From: a virus
Length of the DNA: 64,000 bases
Virus record (IMG/VR): IMGVR_UViG_3300047323_000673
Span: 116,808-180,807 of that record
Direction: 5' to 3' (one strand)
Numbering within the stretch: the first letter of the stretch is position 1; every line of letters begins with the position of its first letter. The notes under the pieces were generated by a model, which worked only from the letters and a program-made list of their open reading frames with translations, did no database searches and had not been told where the DNA came from. A program made the translations under genes and the position numbers. This document shows positions 5,127 to 47,642 of this stretch, in pieces.

Positions 5127-5890
5127 ATTTTTATTCTTTTATTTGTAGTTTGATTATCTTCAAGCTCGGAAGTAAGCTGTTGATTTATTTCTCGTAATTC
5201 AAATAATTTAATAACAGATTCATTAGGATTTTTGGAAAAATAGCTTTTTAAATCATTGTCTAAATTTATATTTTTATTAAAGATAAAATATTTAATAACT
5301 TCCATTTCATCAAATGAACATGCACTTTTAAATGCTAAGTTATAATTGATAGGAAAACGATAATTAGTTAAATCAGGTGATTCTAAAAGATACTTTACAA
5401 TATCAATATGACCATGTTGGGAAGCAGCAGAGAGTATACCTCCATTTAATAACATTTTTCCGATTCTAGAATTATCTTTTTGAGGAGTTAATAGTGCCTG
5501 TAAAAGATGAAGATGTCCATTTCTAGATGCAATTAATGCTTGATCCATACAAAATTTTGAGAAAATATTATCTTTAATTATACTAGAATTCGTTATTATA
5601 TAAGAAATAATTTCGAATTCGTATTCATCACAACATTCTAGTAAAATTCCATTAACATTATCAGGCAAATTAACATATTGAGAAACATAATTATCTTCAA
5701 AAAGATATTTTACAATATTTAAATGACCATTTTTACCTGCCTCATAAAGTAAATCATACCCATAGTTGTTATACTCTTCAAACATTAATTTATCAGTTAA
5801 TTTTTGGAGGGTTTGCAAATCTCCTATTTTACAAGATTCTTTTGCTTTTTTAAATAACTCACGCTGAGTTAAATTATGATAATCGTTCAT
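5123..5890 (-). CDS. Ankyrin-like repeat protein with C-terminal basic tail (KRIKI)
   Basis: AGKNGHLNIVKYL, ASQHGHIDIVKYL; ATGA overlap with the next gene. Confidence 0.85.
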   Translation of the reverse strand: MNDYHNLTQRELFKKAKESCKIGDLQTLQKLTDKLMFEEYNNYGYDLLYEAGKNGHLNIVKYLFEDNYVSQYVNLPDNVNGILLECCDEYEFEIISYIITNSSIIKDNIFSKFCMDQALIASRNGHLHLLQALLTPQKDNSRIGKMLLNGGILSAASQHGHIDIVKYLLESPDLTNYRFPINYNLAFKSACSFDEMEVIKYFIFNKNINLDNDLKSYFSKNPNESVIKLFELREINQQLTSELEDNQTTNKRIKI

Positions 5891-5948
5891 ATTAATTTTA
5901 GTTATATAGATCTTTATTATAGCAAAATAAAATTAATGAACAATAAAT

Positions 5949-6722
5949 TTAAATTTTAGTTTTTTTAATTGGTATTATATTAGGCTCTAAATTTTTATTT
6001 AATTCTGAATTTAAATCACGAATTTCAAAATATTTATCTACATTTTCATTAGGATAACGAGATAAAGACTCTAATATATAAGGTGTTTTCTCAATATTTA
6101 AATCAATAATAAAGTATTTAAGAATATCTAGATGTTTATGTTGTAATGCATTATCAAAGCCAACATCATTATCTAAATGGATATTTGCATGTTCTGATAA
6201 TTCAGGTGAAGTTAATACATATTGCACAATGTTTAAATGTCCATTTAAAACAGCTTGTTTAAATGCTTTGTTTTGACCATATTCAATAGACAATCTATTT
6301 GTTGGAGATATGTCAGGTGAAGTAAGAAAATATTTAAGAACATTTAACTGACCAGAATTTGCTGCATAAGTGACTCCGTCCATGCATGATACTTTAAAAT
6401 TAATGGTTCTTTCGTAAGTATCATAGAGAATGTATTTAACAAGCTCTAAATGACCATTTATACAAGCTTGTCTAAAAGGATTATCATTTCTAGTCATTAT
6501 GTTTGCATTCTCTTCTAAATCTGGTGATGTTAAAAGATAATTTACAAGTTCTAAATGGCCTTTTTCAGCCACAAAGCTAAGTATAGTATTTGGGTGGGCT
6601 ATAACCTTTCTAGCATGTTTACAAGTAAAAAGGCTTTTAAGAGTTTCTAAATCACCATCCTCACAGCACTGTTGTAATATATCCTGTATTTTTTCTTCAC
6701 TTAAAATTGAATACCTACTCAT
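5949..6722 (-). CDS. Ankyrin-like repeat protein with C-terminal basic tail (KKTKI)
   Basis: AEKGHLELVNYLLTSPDL, ACINGHLELVKY, AVLNGHLNIVQY. Confidence 0.87.
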   Translation of the reverse strand: MSRYSILSEEKIQDILQQCCEDGDLETLKSLFTCKHARKVIAHPNTILSFVAEKGHLELVNYLLTSPDLEENANIMTRNDNPFRQACINGHLELVKYILYDTYERTINFKVSCMDGVTYAANSGQLNVLKYFLTSPDISPTNRLSIEYGQNKAFKQAVLNGHLNIVQYVLTSPELSEHANIHLDNDVGFDNALQHKHLDILKYFIIDLNIEKTPYILESLSRYPNENVDKYFEIRDLNSELNKNLEPNIIPIKKTKI

Positions 6723-6723
6723 G

Positions 6724-7512
6724 TTATACCTTTAATTGTTTATGCTGTAATTTGTTTTTAGATAACTCTAATTCAAGAGAATTATGTAAATCTCTAATTT
6801 TAAAAAAATCATTTATTTTATGTGTTATTGTATTATCTGATGAATAAAGATGATTTTTTATTTCTTCAGTTTGCTCTAACTGCTGTTCAAAAATTAAAAA
6901 TTCAATAATATCTAAATGTGAATATGAGCAAGCTCCTTTAAAACATGAATCATTATTAAAGTGGAAATCTAATTTCTGATTAAAATAAGGTAATTGTATA
7001 AGATATTTTAAAATATCAAGCCTACCACATTCACATGCTGCTTCTAATATCCTTTCTTTGTCATAATTTATATTTTGATGATGAATTTCAGTTGAATTTA
7101 ATATATAATCTACAACTTCAATTTTATCATAATAGATTCCTCTTATTATAGCTTCGTAAGAATATTTTTGTAATTGGAACTTATCATTAATGCTTGGATC
7201 AAATAAAAAATATTTAATGATATTTAAATGACCATTTTTACATGCCCATCTAAAAGCATCACTCGATTGTGAATGAGGATTTGCATGAGATTTTAAATCA
7301 GGAGAAGTTAGTAAATATTTTAAAACTTCTAAATTTCCATAACGACATGCTAAAGAAATACATTCATCATTTTCAAAATGAATATCAGCATTATTTTCAA
7401 GTTCATTTGAAGTAAGTAAATACTTAACTAAATCTAAATTTCCTTTAATACAAGCTACATGAAACTCATGATTTGCTTCATCAAAATTTAATTTTTTATA
7501 ATTTTTTTCCAT
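6724..7512 (-). CDS. Ankyrin-like repeat protein with C-terminal tail (KQLKV)
   Basis: ACIKGNLDLVKYL, ACRYGNLEVLKYL, ACKNGHLNIIKYF; 35-aa period. Confidence 0.87.
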   Translation of the reverse strand: MEKNYKKLNFDEANHEFHVACIKGNLDLVKYLLTSNELENNADIHFENDECISLACRYGNLEVLKYLLTSPDLKSHANPHSQSSDAFRWACKNGHLNIIKYFLFDPSINDKFQLQKYSYEAIIRGIYYDKIEVVDYILNSTEIHHQNINYDKERILEAACECGRLDILKYLIQLPYFNQKLDFHFNNDSCFKGACSYSHLDIIEFLIFEQQLEQTEEIKNHLYSSDNTITHKINDFFKIRDLHNSLELELSKNKLQHKQLKV

Positions 7513-41181: not shown

Positions 41182-41682
41182 ATGGAATATACCAAAGTAG
41201 ATGTAGAAAAAATTTCGCAAATGATTCAAGATGGTACTTTGACCAAAATGATTGCTGTAAAAAATGTTCCTGTTAAAGCTATTAAATTAACACAAGAAGT
41301 AGTTGACAAGATTCTTGCTGAAGGTGGTTATAAAACCGTTGTGATTGATGATGAAGGTAAGCCATTTGTAGAAACTACTAATAAAAAAATTAATGTTGGT
41401 GATATGCTGGTTACTAACCAAATTGCAGGATATGATAACTCATATATTATCTCTGCTGAAAAATTTACTAAACTTTATACAGAAGGAAGTCAGCCTGATA
41501 TTTTTAATCCTGCTGGCGAAGATAGAACCGTATATGTAATTCCTAAGGGACTAAATTTGGAATTTGAAGCTCCTTGGGGTGGGGATATGAAAATTCGTGC
41601 GGGTGGAGTTCTTGTCCCCGATGGTGAAAAATTCTACGGTATTAATCCTGAAGAATTTAAAGCTACACACAGTGTAAAATAA
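41182..41682 (+). CDS. Hypothetical protein
   Basis: AGGAG RBS; GDMLVTN...YIISAEKFTKLY and APWGGDM segments of a kind seen in phage hypothetical proteins. Confidence 0.65.
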   Translation: MEYTKVDVEKISQMIQDGTLTKMIAVKNVPVKAIKLTQEVVDKILAEGGYKTVVIDDEGKPFVETTNKKINVGDMLVTNQIAGYDNSYIISAEKFTKLYTEGSQPDIFNPAGEDRTVYVIPKGLNLEFEAPWGGDMKIRAGGVLVPDGEKFYGINPEEFKATHSVK

Positions 41683-41807: not shown

Positions 41808-42278
41808 TCAATACGCTACGCCCAAATCTTCTTTTAATGTATTTTTAATTTTTTTCATTTCGTTTATGTAAAATAGAATTACTCCTACTGGAATAATAAT
41901 GGTGGCAGCACCAAAGAAACTTGCTAAAATCAATGCATAGGTTTTAAAAAGACCAAAAGAATTTACAAAAGATCTAAATCCTAACTCCTCAGAATATTTT
42001 TTGTTTCCAGCTTTTACACCAATAATAATATTCTTATATAATGAAATCGCTACTTCTTGTCCAAGATTCTCATGCAATTTTTCAAAAAGATATCCAGTTG
42101 AAGTAATTTTTCTTAATTCAGAAATGTCTTCATAAAAGTCTATTGAGCCAACAGTTCCCCATTTTGAAACTTGGTTAATTGTACCTTTTCCAATAGACTT
42201 AAGTTTTCCAGTAATTAGCATGTTGTCTCCTTTTGGGTATTTAAGATGATCAAAATATAATATAATGAATTTTATCAC
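41808..42278 (-). CDS. Hypothetical membrane protein
   Basis: C-terminal hydrophobic hairpin; probable internal start (MLITGKL) after GGAG. Confidence 0.55.
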   Translation of the reverse strand: MIKFIILYFDHLKYPKGDNMLITGKLKSIGKGTINQVSKWGTVGSIDFYEDISELRKITSTGYLFEKLHENLGQEVAISLYKNIIIGVKAGNKKYSEELGFRSFVNSFGLFKTYALILASFFGAATIIIPVGVILFYINEMKKIKNTLKEDLGVAY

Positions 42279-42301: not shown

Positions 42302-42324
42302 AAAAAGCCCCAATTAAGGGGCTT
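42302..42324 (-). terminator. Intrinsic terminator after the PheRS-like gene
   Basis: AAAAAGCCCC-AATTAA-GGGGCTT. Confidence 0.75.
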
Positions 42325-42329
42325 ATAAG

Positions 42330-43430
42330 TTAAATTAAATAACCATTTTCTCCTTGATGTATTTTTTGATATATTTGCATATATATTCCATTAGCTTCTT
42401 CACTAGTTAAAGTTCTTTCAATATCCCTAAGAACAATTTTAAGTAAAATATTTTTTTGACTAGAGTTCATACCTAATCTTTCTCTTGCAACTTTAGGTAA
42501 ATCCTCATAACTAGTTTGTGCAACAACTTGAATACTTTCTATGATAGATTGAGTTCCTTCAGAAATACTATCAAGAATAAGCTCTGTTAACTCTTCTTCA
42601 TTGATTTCTTTATCAATAGCAATAGATAAATCTCGTTTAATTGCAGGTTGATTAGAAATGGCTTTATATTTATTCAAATGGGTCAATTGTTTTTGAATAA
42701 GTGGATTATTAGAGTTAAGAATACGAATGTCATCAATATTTTTAATTATCATGGCAAGTCTTTCTAATCCCATACCTAAAGCTAAACCATTATATTCTGA
42801 AAGATGATGATTAGCTAAAAGCTTTTTAGAAATCAAACCACATTCTAAAATTTCTAACCATCTATTTTGATAATAAATTTCTACTTCAATACCATCATCA
42901 GTATAGTTGTGAGAAGTTTCATTATATCTCCATTGAATTTTCCTTTTATGAACATCTTCAATAACAGAAATAATAGTTTCAACCAAAATAATTAAATCCT
43001 GTCTAGTTTGAGATTGAGATGTGAGATACCACACATCCATTTGATGAGGTTCTCCCACATGGGTTTTATCCCTGACATCTCTACGATAAACAATTCCTGG
43101 ACACATCCATAATTTATCTTCATCTTTTTGATAATTTCTAAGTAAAGATGGAATAACTGAACTCATCTGAGTTCTAAGCATATCATGTTCATTAATATAT
43201 TTAGTATAGCGAGTGCCTAAAGTCACTTCATTTTTGTCGTATCCCAGTGCATAATAATTATCATGGGCAGAAACAATTTTTGTGCCTTTTTCTATACTTG
43301 GTGTAAGAGAATATTTCTTTTCTAGCTTCTCTCTAATTTTATTCACTATGATTGAAACACAATGGTTAGAGTCTTCAGTCAAATCTTTTTTGTTTAGTAA
43401 ATCTTGCAACTGCTGTGAGGTTAAATACAT
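42330..43430 (-). CDS. Single-chain PheRS-like protein (alpha-type catalytic domain plus FDX anticodon-binding domain)
   Basis: MLRTQMS, GIVYRRD..DKTH...PHQMD (class II motif 2), WLEILECG, GLALGMGLERLAM (motif 3), then QPAIKRDLSIAID...RTLTSEEAN (FDX-ACB). Confidence 0.8.
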   Translation of the reverse strand: MYLTSQQLQDLLNKKDLTEDSNHCVSIIVNKIREKLEKKYSLTPSIEKGTKIVSAHDNYYALGYDKNEVTLGTRYTKYINEHDMLRTQMSSVIPSLLRNYQKDEDKLWMCPGIVYRRDVRDKTHVGEPHQMDVWYLTSQSQTRQDLIILVETIISVIEDVHKRKIQWRYNETSHNYTDDGIEVEIYYQNRWLEILECGLISKKLLANHHLSEYNGLALGMGLERLAMIIKNIDDIRILNSNNPLIQKQLTHLNKYKAISNQPAIKRDLSIAIDKEINEEELTELILDSISEGTQSIIESIQVVAQTSYEDLPKVARERLGMNSSQKNILLKIVLRDIERTLTSEEANGIYMQIYQKIHQGENGYLI

Positions 43431-43545
43431 TTTTTTCTCCTAATAAGTAAAGTTAAATATCAGGAGAAAAATTCTCCTGATTAAGTGGTAAAGCTTTTAA
43501 AGTGTGTAAAGTCAGATTCCATGATGTTTATTAAAAAATTTAGGT

Positions 43546-43572
43546 AATAAAAAAGGCACCATTAGGCGCCTT
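43546..43572 (-). terminator. Attenuator terminator in the PheRS-like leader
   Basis: AAGGCGCC-TAAT-GGTGCCTT-TTTTATT on the minus strand, between the leader ORF and the gene. Confidence 0.75.
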
Positions 43573-43596
43573 ATTGTTTAATTATTAGAACTTACT

Positions 43597-43686
43597 TCAT
43601 TCTTTAAGCAAAATAGCACCCCTAGCTTGGGTTCCAAAGAAATCAAACATAAAGAAGCTAAAGTTGTTTTTGTTAAGCATATTCAT
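43597..43686 (-). CDS. Phe-rich leader peptide (29 aa; not in ORF track)
   Basis: MNMLNKNNFSFFMFDFFGTQARGAILLKE*, with 6 Phe codons in residues 9-17, between the promoter and the terminator hairpin. Confidence 0.75.
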   Translation of the reverse strand: MNMLNKNNFSFFMFDFFGTQARGAILLKE

Positions 43687-43719
43687 AAGTATTCTAAAAA
43701 TATTGAGTAATTAATACAT

Positions 43720-43748
43720 AGTTTAAACTGAAGATAAGAAAAAGGCAA
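43720..43748 (-). promoter_or_regulatory. Sigma70-type promoter of the leader/PheRS-like transcript
   Basis: TTGCCT-N17-TAAACT. Confidence 0.65.
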
Positions 43749-43967: not shown

Positions 43968-44741
43968 ATGAGTCAGTATTCAGAATTTAAAGAAAAATTT
44001 CTTGATTCAATTCAGGAAAGTATAAAAAATATAAAATCTTTTAAAAATCTTCCTATGAAATTAAAAAAAGACCCTAATTTCATAGCGGAAACTCTAAAAT
44101 TAGTTCACATAAATGAAGCATATGTTGGCCAATATGAAGAATTAGTTCCTGAAATAATAAAAGAATTAGATATAAATAAAGAGGTTGCATTAATTCTTGT
44201 TAAGTCACATGGATATTTACTATGTCGTTTGCCAGAACATTTTAAAGATGATGAAGATGTTATTTTAGAAGCTATTAATAGTTATGCTTTTTCCTTAAAT
44301 TATGCTAGTAAAAAATCAAAAGATAATAAAAAATTGGCTTTAGCCGCAGTTAAGCTTAAACCAGATATGTTAGAAGTGATTTCTAAAAGATTATGTGAAG
44401 ATAAAGAAGTAGTATTGGAAGCAGTAAAAGTTGATGGAAAAGCAGTTAACTATGCTCCTAACTTATGGAGTGACAAAGAAGTTATGTTAGAAGCAGCAAA
44501 AACTAACATAAATGTTTTGCAATATTTAGGGCAGGATTTAGTTGGTGATAAAGAAATAGCATTAGCAGCATATAAATGTGACAAATTTGCTTACCAATAT
44601 TTCACCAAAGAATTAAAACAAGAAATTATAGATAAAAATATTGAAGATATTGCTTCATATCTTGAATCATCAATTTTAGCTGATGCATTACAAACAGAAT
44701 TGATTGAGTCAAAAATACAAATAAAAAAGGTAAAAATTTGA
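43968..44741 (+). CDS. DUF4116-like repeat protein with C-terminal basic tail (KKVKI)
   Basis: DDEDVILEAI, DNKKLALAAV, EDKEVVLEAV, SDKEVMLEAA repeats. Confidence 0.8.
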   Translation: MSQYSEFKEKFLDSIQESIKNIKSFKNLPMKLKKDPNFIAETLKLVHINEAYVGQYEELVPEIIKELDINKEVALILVKSHGYLLCRLPEHFKDDEDVILEAINSYAFSLNYASKKSKDNKKLALAAVKLKPDMLEVISKRLCEDKEVVLEAVKVDGKAVNYAPNLWSDKEVMLEAAKTNINVLQYLGQDLVGDKEIALAAYKCDKFAYQYFTKELKQEIIDKNIEDIASYLESSILADALQTELIESKIQIKKVKI

Positions 44742-44769
44742 AAAATAATATTCAAATTAAAAATGATAT

Positions 44770-45930
44770 ATGAATAAAGATGACTATATTAAATTAATCA
44801 AAAAACAACATATTCAACGAGTTACAGCTAATATTAATCTTTTAAAAAATGTTCCTAGTTTATTTAAAAATGATAAAACTTTTATTTTGGAAGTAATAAG
44901 TAAACTCCAACTATATAACGATTTTAATATTTTATACGAATCAATATCAGAAGATTTACAAAAAAATAAAGAAATAGTATCAAAAATTATTGAAATTCAA
45001 CCTATCTTTCTCAAAAATTTACCTGAAGAATTTAAAAACGATGAGAAATTTGTTTATCAAGCAATAAACAAAGAACCATCTGCATTAATGTACGCATCTG
45101 ATAGGTTTAAAGATAATAAAAAATTAGTTTTATATTCCATAAAAGCATTAGATATGAGATTCAATATAAAGATTTTTTTAGAAAGCTTATCAGATAAAAT
45201 GAAAGATGATAAAGATGTTATATTGGAATGCATAAAGTCAGAACCTTCCTCATTTCTTTTGGCTTCAAATAAAATAAGAAATAATAAAGTAATAGTTAAG
45301 AAAGCAGTTAAAAACGATGTTGATTTATATAAATATCTTCCAGATGAGTTGAAAAGAGATAAAGAAATTGCATTACTGTTCGTGGGACGATTTGTATGTG
45401 CTTACCATGAATTACCCTTAGAATTAAAAAATGATGAAGATATAATATTAGAGGAATTAAAACATGATACATCGTGTTTACTTGATGCTAGTAATGACAT
45501 ATTTGAGAATAAAAAAATTGCTTTAGCTGCTTTAAAAAAAGATTCCCATTTTTTGAATAAATTTTCTGAACAATTAAGGGATGATGAAGATGTTGTATTG
45601 ACATCAGTTAAGCAGAATGGCTTAAGCTTAGAACATGCATCACCCAGATTAAAAAATAATAAAAATATAGTAATTGAAGCTGTAAAAAAAATAAGTCAAG
45701 CCATAAGTTTTGCATCTACTGAATTAAAAAATGATAAAGAAGTTGCTCTAGTTGCTTGTAGGAAAAAATCTTCTGTAAATTATCTTAGCGATGAACTGAA
45801 AAAAGAGCTTGATGGAGTAAAAGATATTGAAAGCTATTTAAAGGCGGCTATCCTTAAAGAAAACTTAGATAGTGAACTTTCTATGACAAAATCAAAAAGC
45901 ATGATGCAAACTAAAAAACTGAAAGTTTAA
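44770..45930 (+). CDS. DUF4116-like repeat protein with C-terminal basic tail (KKLKV)
   Basis: DDEDVVLTSVKQNGLSLEHASPRLKNNKNIVIEAV and similar repeats. Confidence 0.85.
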   Translation: MNKDDYIKLIKKQHIQRVTANINLLKNVPSLFKNDKTFILEVISKLQLYNDFNILYESISEDLQKNKEIVSKIIEIQPIFLKNLPEEFKNDEKFVYQAINKEPSALMYASDRFKDNKKLVLYSIKALDMRFNIKIFLESLSDKMKDDKDVILECIKSEPSSFLLASNKIRNNKVIVKKAVKNDVDLYKYLPDELKRDKEIALLFVGRFVCAYHELPLELKNDEDIILEELKHDTSCLLDASNDIFENKKIALAALKKDSHFLNKFSEQLRDDEDVVLTSVKQNGLSLEHASPRLKNNKNIVIEAVKKISQAISFASTELKNDKEVALVACRKKSSVNYLSDELKKELDGVKDIESYLKAAILKENLDSELSMTKSKSMMQTKKLKV

Positions 45931-45933
45931 AAC

Positions 45934-47157
45934 ATGAATAAAGAAATCAGACAACAACATATTAATAGACTTAAATATAATCTAAACTCTTTTAAGGATT
46001 TATTAACTTCTATTAAAAGTGATAAAGAGTTTGTTCTAGAGTTAATAGGCAATTTAAATATAATGCATGATATGAAGACATTATATGATGCATTGCCCGA
46101 AGTTTTACAAAAAGATAAAGAGGTAGGATTAAAAATTGTTGAAATAAATCCGATGGCTTTACAACACCTCTCTGATAATTTTAAAGATGATAAAGATATT
46201 GTCTATAAAGCAGTAAAATTAGAACCATCTGTATTAATTTATGCATCTGAAAAATTTAGGGATGATAAAACTTTAGCTTTATATGCTACAAGCTCTTATG
46301 AATTACTTATGGATGTAACCCCAATGTTAGAAAGCTTATCAGATAGATTAAAAGATGATAAGGAAATTATTAGTCAATGTGCAAGATTACAGCCTTCTTC
46401 TTTTTTATTAGCTTCAGATAGGCTCCAAAATGATAAAGATGTGGCAAAAATAGCAGTTAGAGGTGATGGTATTTTATATAGACATCTTCCAGAACAATTT
46501 AAAAATGATAAAGAAATTGCATTAATAGCAGTAAGTCAATACTCATCCATTTATGAATCTTTACCATTAGAGCTACAAAATGATAAAGATATAGGCTTAG
46601 CAGCAGTAAGAAAGAACTATCAAGTATATGAAAGTTTAACTCCACATTTACAAAATGATGAAGATATAGCCTTAGAAGCATTAAAAGTAGACACATCTTG
46701 TCTAAATTATGCAGGAAAAGAGATATTTAAAAGTAAAATAGTCGCTTTAACTGCTTTTAAAAAAGATTCACAATTTTTACATAAATTCAGTGAAAAATTA
46801 AAAGATGATGAAGATGTAATTAAACTTGCAATTAAGCAAAATGGTTTAAATTTAGAGTATGCTTCTAGTAGACTACGCAATAACAAAGAGTTAGTGCTTG
46901 CAGCAGTAAAAAGTCAGGGTTCTTCACTATTCTTTGCATCTGATATATTAAAAAATGACAAAGAAATAGCCTTATATGCATATAAAAGATATAAGAAAGC
47001 TATGAATTATTTTGGTGAAGAACTGAAAAAAGAACTTGTTGGAGTAAAGAATATTGAAGGCTATCTGAAAGCAGCCATGTTTAAAGAAGATTTGGCTAGT
47101 GAGTTAAGTGAACAAACACAAGAAGCTACTACAAAAGCGAAGAAGATTAAAATTTGA
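45934..47157 (+). CDS. DUF4116-like repeat protein with C-terminal basic tail (KKIKI)
   Basis: DDEDVIKLAIKQNGLNLEYASSRLRNNKELVLAAV; close paralogue of 44770..45930. Confidence 0.85.
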   Translation: MNKEIRQQHINRLKYNLNSFKDLLTSIKSDKEFVLELIGNLNIMHDMKTLYDALPEVLQKDKEVGLKIVEINPMALQHLSDNFKDDKDIVYKAVKLEPSVLIYASEKFRDDKTLALYATSSYELLMDVTPMLESLSDRLKDDKEIISQCARLQPSSFLLASDRLQNDKDVAKIAVRGDGILYRHLPEQFKNDKEIALIAVSQYSSIYESLPLELQNDKDIGLAAVRKNYQVYESLTPHLQNDEDIALEALKVDTSCLNYAGKEIFKSKIVALTAFKKDSQFLHKFSEKLKDDEDVIKLAIKQNGLNLEYASSRLRNNKELVLAAVKSQGSSLFFASDILKNDKEIALYAYKRYKKAMNYFGEELKKELVGVKNIEGYLKAAMFKEDLASELSEQTQEATTKAKKIKI

Positions 47158-47167
47158 TAAAAAAGTC

Positions 47168-47196
47168 TTGCATTTATTAAAGAGTTGGGATATAAT
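47168..47196 (+). promoter_or_regulatory. Promoter of the tmRNA gene
   Basis: TTGCAT-N17-TATAAT. Confidence 0.8.
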
Positions 47197-47203
47197 CTTT
47201 TCT

Positions 47204-47532
47204 GTAGTCAGCGATGATTACAAGATTGCTGTATATCTGGTCAAGCGGAAGTGTTTCGGAAGCGGGTTCGACTCCCGCCATCTCCACCAAAAACATATTC
47301 GTTTTACACTCTCAACAAGTGTACTCCAGAAATTAGATACTGAAGTATGAGTATTTTTTTGATGGGGATGTTCTGGCTTCGACGGGGCAACAAAGTGAGA
47401 TTGGCAGCACGGTAGGCGATGACCGTAAATCAAGCAAAAATGATATCTGCAAACGATACCAACTATAGTCTCGCTGCTTAAAAACCAGTGACTATCGGGG
47501 CCTTCCAAAGCCTTGTTACCCAAGATGGAATG
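47204..47532 (+). ncRNA. ssrA: Circularly permuted (two-piece) tmRNA; tag peptide ANDTNYSLAA
   Basis: The 3' half comes first: T-arm GCGGG-TTCGACT-CCCGC and CATCTCC-A-CCA (47262..47289). After a 74-nt intervening segment, the 5' half GGGGATG-TTCTGGCTTCGAC starts at 47364 (G3:U70 pair). Tag ORF GCA AAC GAT ACC AAC TAT AGT CTC GCT GCT TAA at 47449..47481. Outer ends approximate. Confidence 0.93.
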
Positions 47533-47557
47533 AAAAAGCACCTTCGGGTGCTTTTTT
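47533..47557 (+). terminator. Intrinsic terminator of tmRNA
   Basis: AAAAAGCACC-TTCG-GGTGCTTTTTT. Confidence 0.9.
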
Positions 47558-47642
47558 CGTTTTTGCTTTAGATTTATTAAAAATTATTTGATAATTTTAA
47601 TATTATTTTATATGTTGCTCCTAAGCAATTTATGGAATAATA

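Follow-up and report, generated by a model that had tools for sequence, protein, structure and literature searches.

A probable two-tier phenylalanine-codon attenuator upstream of an SrmL-family PheS-like ligase

The subject of this study is a gene for a single-chain PheS-like ligase of the SrmL family and the leader that precedes it, both located on the minus strand of a 64,000-nucleotide (nt) stretch of DNA, hereafter the window, which corresponds to positions 116,808-180,807 of the 180.8-kb IMG/VR record IMGVR_UViG_3300047323_000673. The gene (42330..43430) encodes 366 residues, and its leader of about 280 nt contains two short open reading frames (ORFs) with phenylalanine (Phe) codons, the first followed by an intrinsic terminator and the second by a hairpin whose 3' arm can mask the gene's ribosome-binding site. 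We consider it likely that this arrangement is a Phe-codon attenuator working in two tiers, and that the ligase behind it most likely charges tRNA-Phe when the supply fails. The evidence comes from the anatomy of the sequence, the family and predicted fold of the protein, the conservation of leaders among its relatives and a linkage to tRNA-Phe genes.

All features of the leader lie on the minus strand and are given in the direction of transcription. A putative promoter (43720..43748), recognized by direct reading, consists of TTGCCT (43748-43743) and TAAACT (43725-43720) separated by 17 nt; it agrees with the consensus at 8 of 12 positions and falls under the cut-off of the promoter scan, hence its absence from the scan's list, and its position is retained as TTGCAT-N17-TACACT in a relative with 88% identity. 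Leader ORF 1 (43597..43686) follows with 29 codons from an ATG start, encoding MNMLNKNNFSFFMFDFFGTQARGAILLKE, and carries six Phe residues within codons 9-17 (codons beginning at 43662, 43656, 43653, 43647, 43641 and 43638); the 88% relative retains it as MNMLSNNKFGSFMFGFFGTQTDGVILFKA. Downstream stands the terminator (43547..43572), in which segment 3, AAGGCGCC (43572-43565), and segment 4, GGTGCCTT (43560-43553), enclose a TAAT loop and lead into a U-run. Its stem of eight pairs, five of them G-C, was detected independently by the terminator scan and folds with -12.9 kcal/mol, and in the 88% relative it reads AAGGCACC-GATG-GGTGCCTT, where a G-C pair replaces the G-U pair of the window. A preliminary description of this DNA had listed, in this order, the promoter, the Phe-rich ORF at these same coordinates and the terminator with its loop and U-run, and all three are there, but the promoter match is weak; the layout it gave is sound as far as it goes, but it overlooked the second mini-ORF and the second hairpin. 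The hairpin and terminator scan returned both leader hairpins together with a terminator-like hairpin 3' of the gene (42305..42324), three sites versus 0.6 expected.

Folding of the free RNA pairs segment 1, the Phe-codon tract and 5' arm of a pause hairpin (43639..43660), with segment 2 (43614..43634) through UAGC:GCUA, UCUUUA:UAGGGG, GUUUG:CAAGC and UUC:GAA. Segment 2 has a second partner: by way of GGUGCU (43620-43615) it can pair with GGCGCC (43570-43565) in the 5' arm of the terminator, giving an antiterminator of -11.5 kcal/mol versus the terminator's -12.9 kcal/mol. Nascent transcripts were modelled as RNA ending at the terminator loop, on which a ribosome footprint of 30 nt was placed at set positions. 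The terminator 5' arm was unpaired when the RNA was free or the ribosome sat on the stop codon, and with the footprint on five of the six Phe codons GGUGCU paired with it, so that the choice of partners proposed earlier for this segment, GGCGCC or the Phe-codon tract, is borne out by the constrained and free folds. The elements expected of an attenuator are accordingly present, namely an upstream ORF rich in the regulatory codon, an intrinsic terminator between this ORF and the gene and, in the nascent folds, mutually exclusive pairings. The Rfam family Phe_leader (RF01859) aligns over its full length to 43673-43547 with 25 bits (E = 0.05 in a 431-nt search), short of its gathering threshold of 55 bits, and the leader is thus not a member of that family by sequence. 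No Rfam family reached threshold in the window leader or in 20 homologue loci, and none of the leader peptides is covered by an NCBIfam family.

The second tier begins with mini-ORF 2 (43481..43522), read directly and from its relatives, which has 13 codons, three of them UUU, and encodes MESDFTHFKSFTT. Counterparts are found at about -100 in relatives with 49-88% identity (MESDFTHFISFTT, METDFSDFRKLKEFKT, MESDFRNLIPS, MESHFRKIN, MKPRFTKIT, MSEADFTRIP, MDNTEFSQNP and METDFTDFI); most have a good Shine-Dalgarno (SD) sequence, and their first Phe codon is always UUU, at position 5-6. On the final base of the mini-ORF 2 stop codon begins the 5' arm of a hairpin of 10 base pairs (bp) found by the scan (43459..43481; -12.4 kcal/mol), in which a pseudo-SD, ATCAGGAGAA (43481-43472), is joined by TTT to an anti-SD, TTCTCCTGAT (43468-43459). 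In the full-length free fold the anti-SD instead masks the SD region of the gene (43432..43445, with AGGAG at 43441-43437), leaving it with a probability of being unpaired, P(unpaired), of 0.04 through a 14-bp helix with 43472-43459, and the gene SD is likewise masked in eight of ten lineages (P(unpaired) <= 0.23). In nascent RNA, where the SD has not yet been made, the anti-SD is held in a local hairpin, its partner in the window being the pseudo-SD. This hairpin persists with a ribosome at the first UUU and is lost with the footprint on the mini-ORF stop codon in six of the ten lineages, in which its energy changes from -9 to -21 kcal/mol to 0 to -3 kcal/mol. We infer from these models that a stall would keep the SD open and that finished translation of the mini-ORF would close it.

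Taken together, the two tiers suggest the following sequence of events, which supposes that the mini-ORFs are translated. With ample Phe-tRNA, ribosomes would traverse the 29-codon ORF, and segment 2, either bound to segment 1 or hidden under the ribosome, would leave the terminator 3:4 to form, ending transcription at about 43547. A stall at the six Phe codons would free segment 2 to pair with the terminator 5' arm, and RNA polymerase would read through. In the second tier, the anti-SD would be able to capture the gene SD but would be locked by the pseudo-SD hairpin in nascent RNA; a ribosome finishing the 13-codon MESDFTHFKSFTT would melt this hairpin, since the stop codon abuts it, so releasing the anti-SD to mask the real SD, and after a stall at UUU the hairpin would persist and the SD would stay accessible. 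The leader as a whole would gauge the pace at which ribosomes decode Phe codons, and SrmL would be produced when Phe-tRNA-Phe is scarce, for which an auxiliary tRNA-Phe-charging enzyme would be the most likely function.

Comparison with relatives shows that the Phe-rich leader is a recurrent feature. The preliminary description had named a lack of Phe-rich mini-ORFs upstream of homologues as something that would speak against it; such leaders recur in many lineages, in three architectures. The exact SrmL protein is present on a 2.23 Mb contig, and its close relatives are metagenomic. Homologues with 47-60% identity have terminators and Phe-rich leaders that cannot be aligned (MYLNQQHFFFTFFPL.., MSINTFKFSFTSFFF.., MNNLSFNFFSFFMGEKS and MNKYFTYFFFTSFR); by locus, the leaders are MYLNQQHFFFTFFPLRKRGVF at L097, MSINTFKFSFTSFFFRKK.. 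at L103, MNNLSFNFFSFFMGEKS at L104 and MNKYFTYFFFTSFR at L112. Leader and terminator thus recur with unrelated peptide sequences in five lineages, a likeness confined to the regulatory codon as is typical of attenuators. Footprint folding gave attenuator-like switching in L112, L097 and L103, and weaker or ambiguous switching in L104 and L083.

Seven other lineages (49-66% identity) have no first tier, and SrmL directly follows tRNA genes that always include tRNA-Phe(GAA), in two to six copies within 1.5 kb upstream. In L085 six tRNA-Phe copies alternate with tRNA-Gln, and in L087 five do so with tRNA-Asp; L090, L092, L096, L107 and L108 have two to four. At three of these loci the tRNA genes form very dense tandem arrays (L085:1279-2208 and 5281-6107, L087:1230-2380, L108:341-1382), with 21 tRNA genes in 6.1 kb at L085; in each array two or three species take turns (Phe/Gln, Asp/Arg, Phe/Asp), and some members have odd anticodon loops. 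Neighbouring tRNAs are rare at the high-GC and Pseudomonas loci, and none of them is tRNA-Phe.

The protein itself is assigned by NCBIfam to NF051887, "PheS-related mystery ligase SrmL", with 387 bits (cut-off 300) over profile positions 2-349 of 349, in agreement with the preliminary description, which had mentioned SrmL-like, PheS-related ligases. Pfam recognizes the class II core of phenylalanyl-tRNA synthetase (PheRS; PF01409, 114.5 bits) and an FDX-ACB anticodon-binding domain at residues 259-359 (PF03147, 38.3 bits, cut-off 31.1); the Pfam search found no further domain, and the B3/B4 editing domain is absent. An AlphaFold model (26 homologues) is confident, with a predicted local distance difference test score (pLDDT) of 93 and a predicted template modelling score (pTM) of 0.88, and the PDB entries that it matches best in fold are those of human mitochondrial PheRS at full length (3CMQ, 5MGV; TM score 0.79-0.81 over 382-402 aligned columns, 21-22% identity). 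The single-chain, organellar type of architecture suggested in the preliminary description is therefore well founded in domains and fold. Our homologue search gave 971 matches at E <= 0.001, which probably include canonical PheS, the best 120 of the 971 at E <= 1e-88; SrmL is widespread, being represented among Actinomycetota, Myxococcota, Pseudomonadota, large phages and intracellular bacteria. A literature search found no paper on SrmL or on a bacterial single-chain PheRS, and the literature found treats monomeric PheRS as organellar only.

It is at the substrate that the strongest alternative enters, according to which the leaders sense Phe codons while SrmL joins another amino acid, such as a hydroxylated or polar aromatic one, to tRNA-Phe, or makes a non-ribosomal product from Phe or tRNA-Phe. 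The aromatic pair FPF that packs against the Phe ring in bacterial and mitochondrial PheRS (F258/F260 in Thermus thermophilus) is replaced in SrmL by H174-N175-Y176, with the His and Tyr invariant in 26 homologues, so the amino-acid substrate could differ; the flanks of motif 3 also change from F to L. SrmL further scores under the cut-offs of every model for true PheRS, the equivalog TIGR00468 (102.8 vs 237 bits), the organellar pheS_mito model TIGR00469 (143.1 vs 258 bits) and NF003210 (67.7 vs 350 bits), it lacks an editing domain, and the NCBI curators' own label is "mystery ligase". On the other hand, motif 2 (VYRRD..THvGEPHQMD) and motif 3 (GLALGMGLERL) align with solved PheRS alpha chains, and the residues that contact ATP and the alpha-amino group are retained (R116/R117, H129-Q130 and A217, with D132 substituting for Glu). 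Human cytosolic PheRS has Asn410 and Tyr412 at both aromatic positions and yet recognizes Phe (PMC3275996), from which it follows that the altered pocket of SrmL is compatible with Phe, the presumed substrate. Induction by stalling at Phe codons, together with the tRNA-Phe arrays, would best fit the restoration of Phe-tRNA-Phe, and we therefore regard a different substrate or product as unlikely, albeit worth keeping in view. With respect to classification, SrmL is a member of NF051887, and its membership in PheRS proper is not established given the sub-threshold scores and the altered pocket.

A second alternative holds that the upstream ORF and hairpin are no sensor at all, being a chance ORF in AT-rich DNA or an independent small gene or small RNA that has a terminator of its own, with the SrmL promoter lying further downstream. 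Phe-rich mini-ORFs, defined as at least five Phe in nine codons, are indeed common, numbering 23 on both strands of the 180.8-kb record (two of them with six Phe), and leader ORF 1 itself has no clear SD; sub-threshold small RNA matches (STnc40, 26 bits) overlap the terminator, and 113 nt separate the terminator from the gene start. A terminator-like site, present in about 4% of 130-nt tiles, follows only two of these 23 mini-ORFs, the SrmL leader being the only strong case. We examined as controls the 300 nt upstream of each of 227 ORFs of at least 150 residues, drawn from this record and from the loci of 13 AT-rich relatives. The combination of Phe-rich mini-ORF and terminator preceded five of the 227, and all five are SrmL genes. 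Given this restriction, the recurrence with unrelated peptides in five lineages, the attenuator-like alternative pairings and the absence of any promoter-like site in the scan between terminator and gene start, we hold a coincidental or independent element to be improbable.

A third architecture is evident in homologues with 36-41% identity from Actinomycetota, Myxococcota and some Pseudomonadota. Here, 120-270 nt upstream of SrmL, lies a motif composed of C[AG]N-CGA-UUU, 5-6 variable nt and a C-rich arm, and CG[AC]-UUU with the C-rich arm is found in 86 of 97 loci (gene GC content at least 0.62). All of the 88 non-redundant sites have an in-frame ATG or GTG 9-45 nt upstream (versus 14 and 6 in the other frames) and an in-frame stop within 78 nt (versus 26 and 28), and in 74 a TAnnnT box stops 4-9 nt short of the start (versus 0 and 4). 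The in-frame start and stop mark the motif as part of a reading frame, and the box at this spacing, a hallmark of leaderless mRNAs, points to leaderless mini-ORFs; where the distance from start to UUU differs, it does so by whole codons. Every site uses UUU for Phe and nearly every one CGA for Arg, the genomes having about 70% GC, and such a rare, wobble-read CGA-UUU fits a possible selection for slow decoding. Rare control codons have a precedent in the CUA codons of the leu leader, a classical attenuator. The same pair also turns up outside these phyla: in a 60% relative with an AT-rich genome the mini-ORF ends in ..ILRF-stop, written CGA UUU UGA (L090:2431-2478), and the MKPRF of the L108 mini-ORF likewise has CGA UUU. 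A reading of CGA-UUU and hairpin as a -1/+1 frameshift site was dropped for want of a slippery heptamer.

The C-rich arm of these leaders has two alternative partners, the next segment and a distal, GGCCGGGGG-like one; the duplex with the latter is long-range, with a mean of -27.6 kcal/mol and many compensatory changes; enforcing this helix raises SD accessibility modestly, from 0.19 to 0.30. In the free RNA the SD is masked (mean P(unpaired) 0.17), and in nascent RNA the probability that the anti-SD is paired is 0.68 with a ribosome stalled at UUU, compared with 0.49 in free RNA and 0.46 once the ribosome has reached the stop codon (p = 4e-6). The shift exceeds 0.2 in 20 loci and in none in the opposite direction. 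In mycobacteria, ribosomes stalled on leaderless short ORFs with poly-Cys unmask a ribosome-binding site (Canestrari et al., 10.1101/834739), a mechanism which the nascent folding of the high-GC leaders appears to match. That these structures are instead operators, with SrmL binding its own mRNA or uncharged tRNA-Phe binding UUU in a T-box-like manner and the frames being incidental, would account for a CGA-UUU kept at the nucleotide level with codons rare even in 70% GC genomes and for the covarying long-range helix, but is very improbable in view of the frame-specific starts, stops and -10 boxes, the indels in multiples of three, the lack of a T-box or other Rfam family at threshold, the leu precedent and the many Phe codons with unrelated flanks in AT-rich relatives. 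ThrRS (threonyl-tRNA synthetase), which binds its own mRNA at thrS, provides the model for an operator of this kind.

Several observations weigh against a two-tier attenuator in charge of a Phe-specific enzyme, in addition to the altered pocket. The 1:2 / 2:3 / 3:4 layout that had been proposed for the window is ribosome-dependent in the nascent folds, as it should be, but does not hold at equilibrium, where the terminator forms in every state of full-length folds with footprints (P = 0.96), and the antiterminator core comprises just 6 bp, two of them G-U. Since the terminator wins in all equilibrium states and the nascent model switches, the switch would appear to be kinetic, as in classical attenuators. 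A clear SD is absent from both mini-ORFs of the window, and the behaviour of the second tier is ambiguous in four of the ten lineages. In the high-GC leaders, a simulated stall at UUU gave no significant rise in SD accessibility at equilibrium (0.17 vs 0.21). Finally, where SrmL is carried by a 508-kb viral contig or by phage-like contigs of about 145 kb, it stands inside operons without a leader, and there is no convincing leader at the Pseudomonas loci or at some other homologues.

The two-tier attenuator remains the reading we prefer, and a bolder version of it can be offered more tentatively, as a possibility short of an even chance: SrmL would be a true stand-alone PheRS of bacteria and phages, the free-living counterpart of the organellar enzyme, silent until ribosomes stall at Phe codons. 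Such stalls could arise, for instance, when an antibiotic, a toxin or a phage-defence nuclease poisons the main PheRS or tRNA-Phe. The high-GC switch would then be a new kind of attenuator, a leaderless mini-ORF that senses through one invariant pair of rare, wobble-decoded codons (CGA-UUU) lying 5-6 nt ahead of a bistable set of hairpins, to which the AT-rich intracellular lineage would have added the classical multi-Phe terminator tier.

The genomic context bears on whether SrmL is an additional enzyme. Full-length canonical pheT was found in five of five SrmL-bearing genomes (Pseudomonas, Microbacterium, Minicystis, Marinobacter and Kitasatospora), and SrmL is therefore an extra copy in those genomes; against the 180.8-kb record, which is part of a genome, the pheT model matched only the FDX-ACB part of SrmL itself. 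Comparison of gene neighbours across phyla found no conserved protein-coding neighbour, and the top neighbour clusters were rejected as shadow ORFs inside the SrmL gene. The record is listed as a provirus (CheckV 28%), yet SrmL has as its neighbours DUF4116, DUF285, GGDEF and orphan genes and a two-piece transfer-messenger RNA (tmRNA), and family searches around the gene matched no phage family. The earlier idea of a mobile element gaining a defence-induced backup synthetase thus finds no support, with no phage genes nearby and the exact protein on a 2.23 Mb contig. Holding argS, a tmRNA and ankyrin, DUF285 and DUF4116 gene arrays, the region probably represents an effector island in the chromosome of an intracellular bacterium and not a prophage.

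Upstream of argS in the same organism, outside the window (L180:3114-3318 = G000:C1:87629-87833, minus strand), a 35-codon ORF, MKNFANIVIRRRHTSIYAQGEKVDGSLCSIKVKPS, in which three Arg codons stand in a row (CGC AGG CGA; RRR), is followed by a terminator, AAGGCTCC-TTAT-GGAGCT with a T-run. From its sequence this looks like an Arg attenuator, which suggests that control by leader peptides is a general trait of synthetase genes in this organism.

Further observations were made in passing. The two-piece (permuted) tmRNA of the window (47144-47559, plus strand; tag ANDTNYSLAA; best Rfam family beta_tmRNA, 140 bits) directly follows three tandem DUF4116 genes (43968-47157). A 166-residue ORF (41182-41682, plus strand) has a weak, sub-cut-off match to an intein splicing domain (PF14890, 18 bits), and a 156-residue ORF immediately downstream of SrmL (41808-42278, minus strand) has no family match. 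On the 508-kb viral contig (CheckV 97%; L002:2400-3000 and 6735-7037), a gene resembling histidyl-tRNA synthetase ends 10 nt ahead of the SrmL homologue and three tRNA-Glu genes lie nearby, an arrangement suggestive of translation genes clustered in a very large virus or phage. Seven Pseudomonas loci (L006, L020, L026, L029, L033, L046 and L078) share a motif, GGTTATTTGTGT..CTGTAG..TTCTGAAAAT, within an AT-rich stretch at about -170 to -120; some of them have a small ORF, MG(L/V)VF.., at about -70, and a C4 antisense RNA (P1/P7-type) lies 1.6 kb downstream at L006. The Phe-rich "ORFs" that Pseudomonas loci show between -300 and -400 were rejected, being antisense to the start of a neighbouring gene.

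Cis-regulatory leaders reveal what a gene responds to, and those described here consequently tie SrmL to the decoding of Phe codons. They provide the first concrete clue linking this family to tRNA-Phe, through Phe-codon decoding in three independent architectures and through gene order. They also suggest a reservoir of alternative, editing-free PheRS, which could bear on resistance to PheRS inhibitors, on conflicts in which phage and host compete over tRNA and on how the organellar enzyme arose.

Among known systems, the closest are the E. coli pheST attenuator with its pheM leader peptide and the pheA leader (pheL), in which ribosome stalling at Phe codons leads to read-through. The window leader is like these (RF01859) in having a Phe-rich short ORF, alternative hairpins and an intrinsic terminator before a Phe-related gene; it differs from pheST in that its gene encodes a single-chain paralogue rather than pheS-pheT, in its added translational tier and in mini-ORFs with no evident SD. 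The high-GC SrmL leaders would resemble the mycobacterial poly-Cys attenuators, with a leaderless ATG or GTG mini-ORF before a structure-masked ribosome-binding site, but their sensor would be a single CGA-UUU pair, for Phe instead of Cys and with a synthetase-like target, as known here from sequence and folding; if this is true, the leaderless CGA-UUU mini-ORF widens the known range of ribosome-mediated attenuators. In ermC-type translational attenuation, the position of the ribosome on the leader ORF selects hairpins that hide or expose a downstream SD, and the same logic is proposed for the second SrmL tier and for the high-GC leaders, except that the stall would be at a hungry codon and not of a drug-bound ribosome, with the pseudo-SD of the window serving as decoy partner of the anti-SD. 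The protein is like human mitochondrial PheRS (FARS2; 3CMQ, 5MGV) in combining a PheS core and a C-terminal FDX-ACB domain in one chain that lacks the editing module, and unlike it in being bacterial and phage-borne, additional to pheST where this was tested, with an H-N-Y pocket and 21-22% identity. For the proposed logic as a whole, Streptomyces coelicolor trpRS1, an auxiliary, antibiotic-resistant tryptophanyl-tRNA synthetase under ribosome-mediated attenuation, offers a parallel: SrmL may likewise be a second synthetase switched on by stalling at the codons of its own amino acid, though for another amino acid and in another enzyme class, and with no known inhibitor or resistance phenotype.

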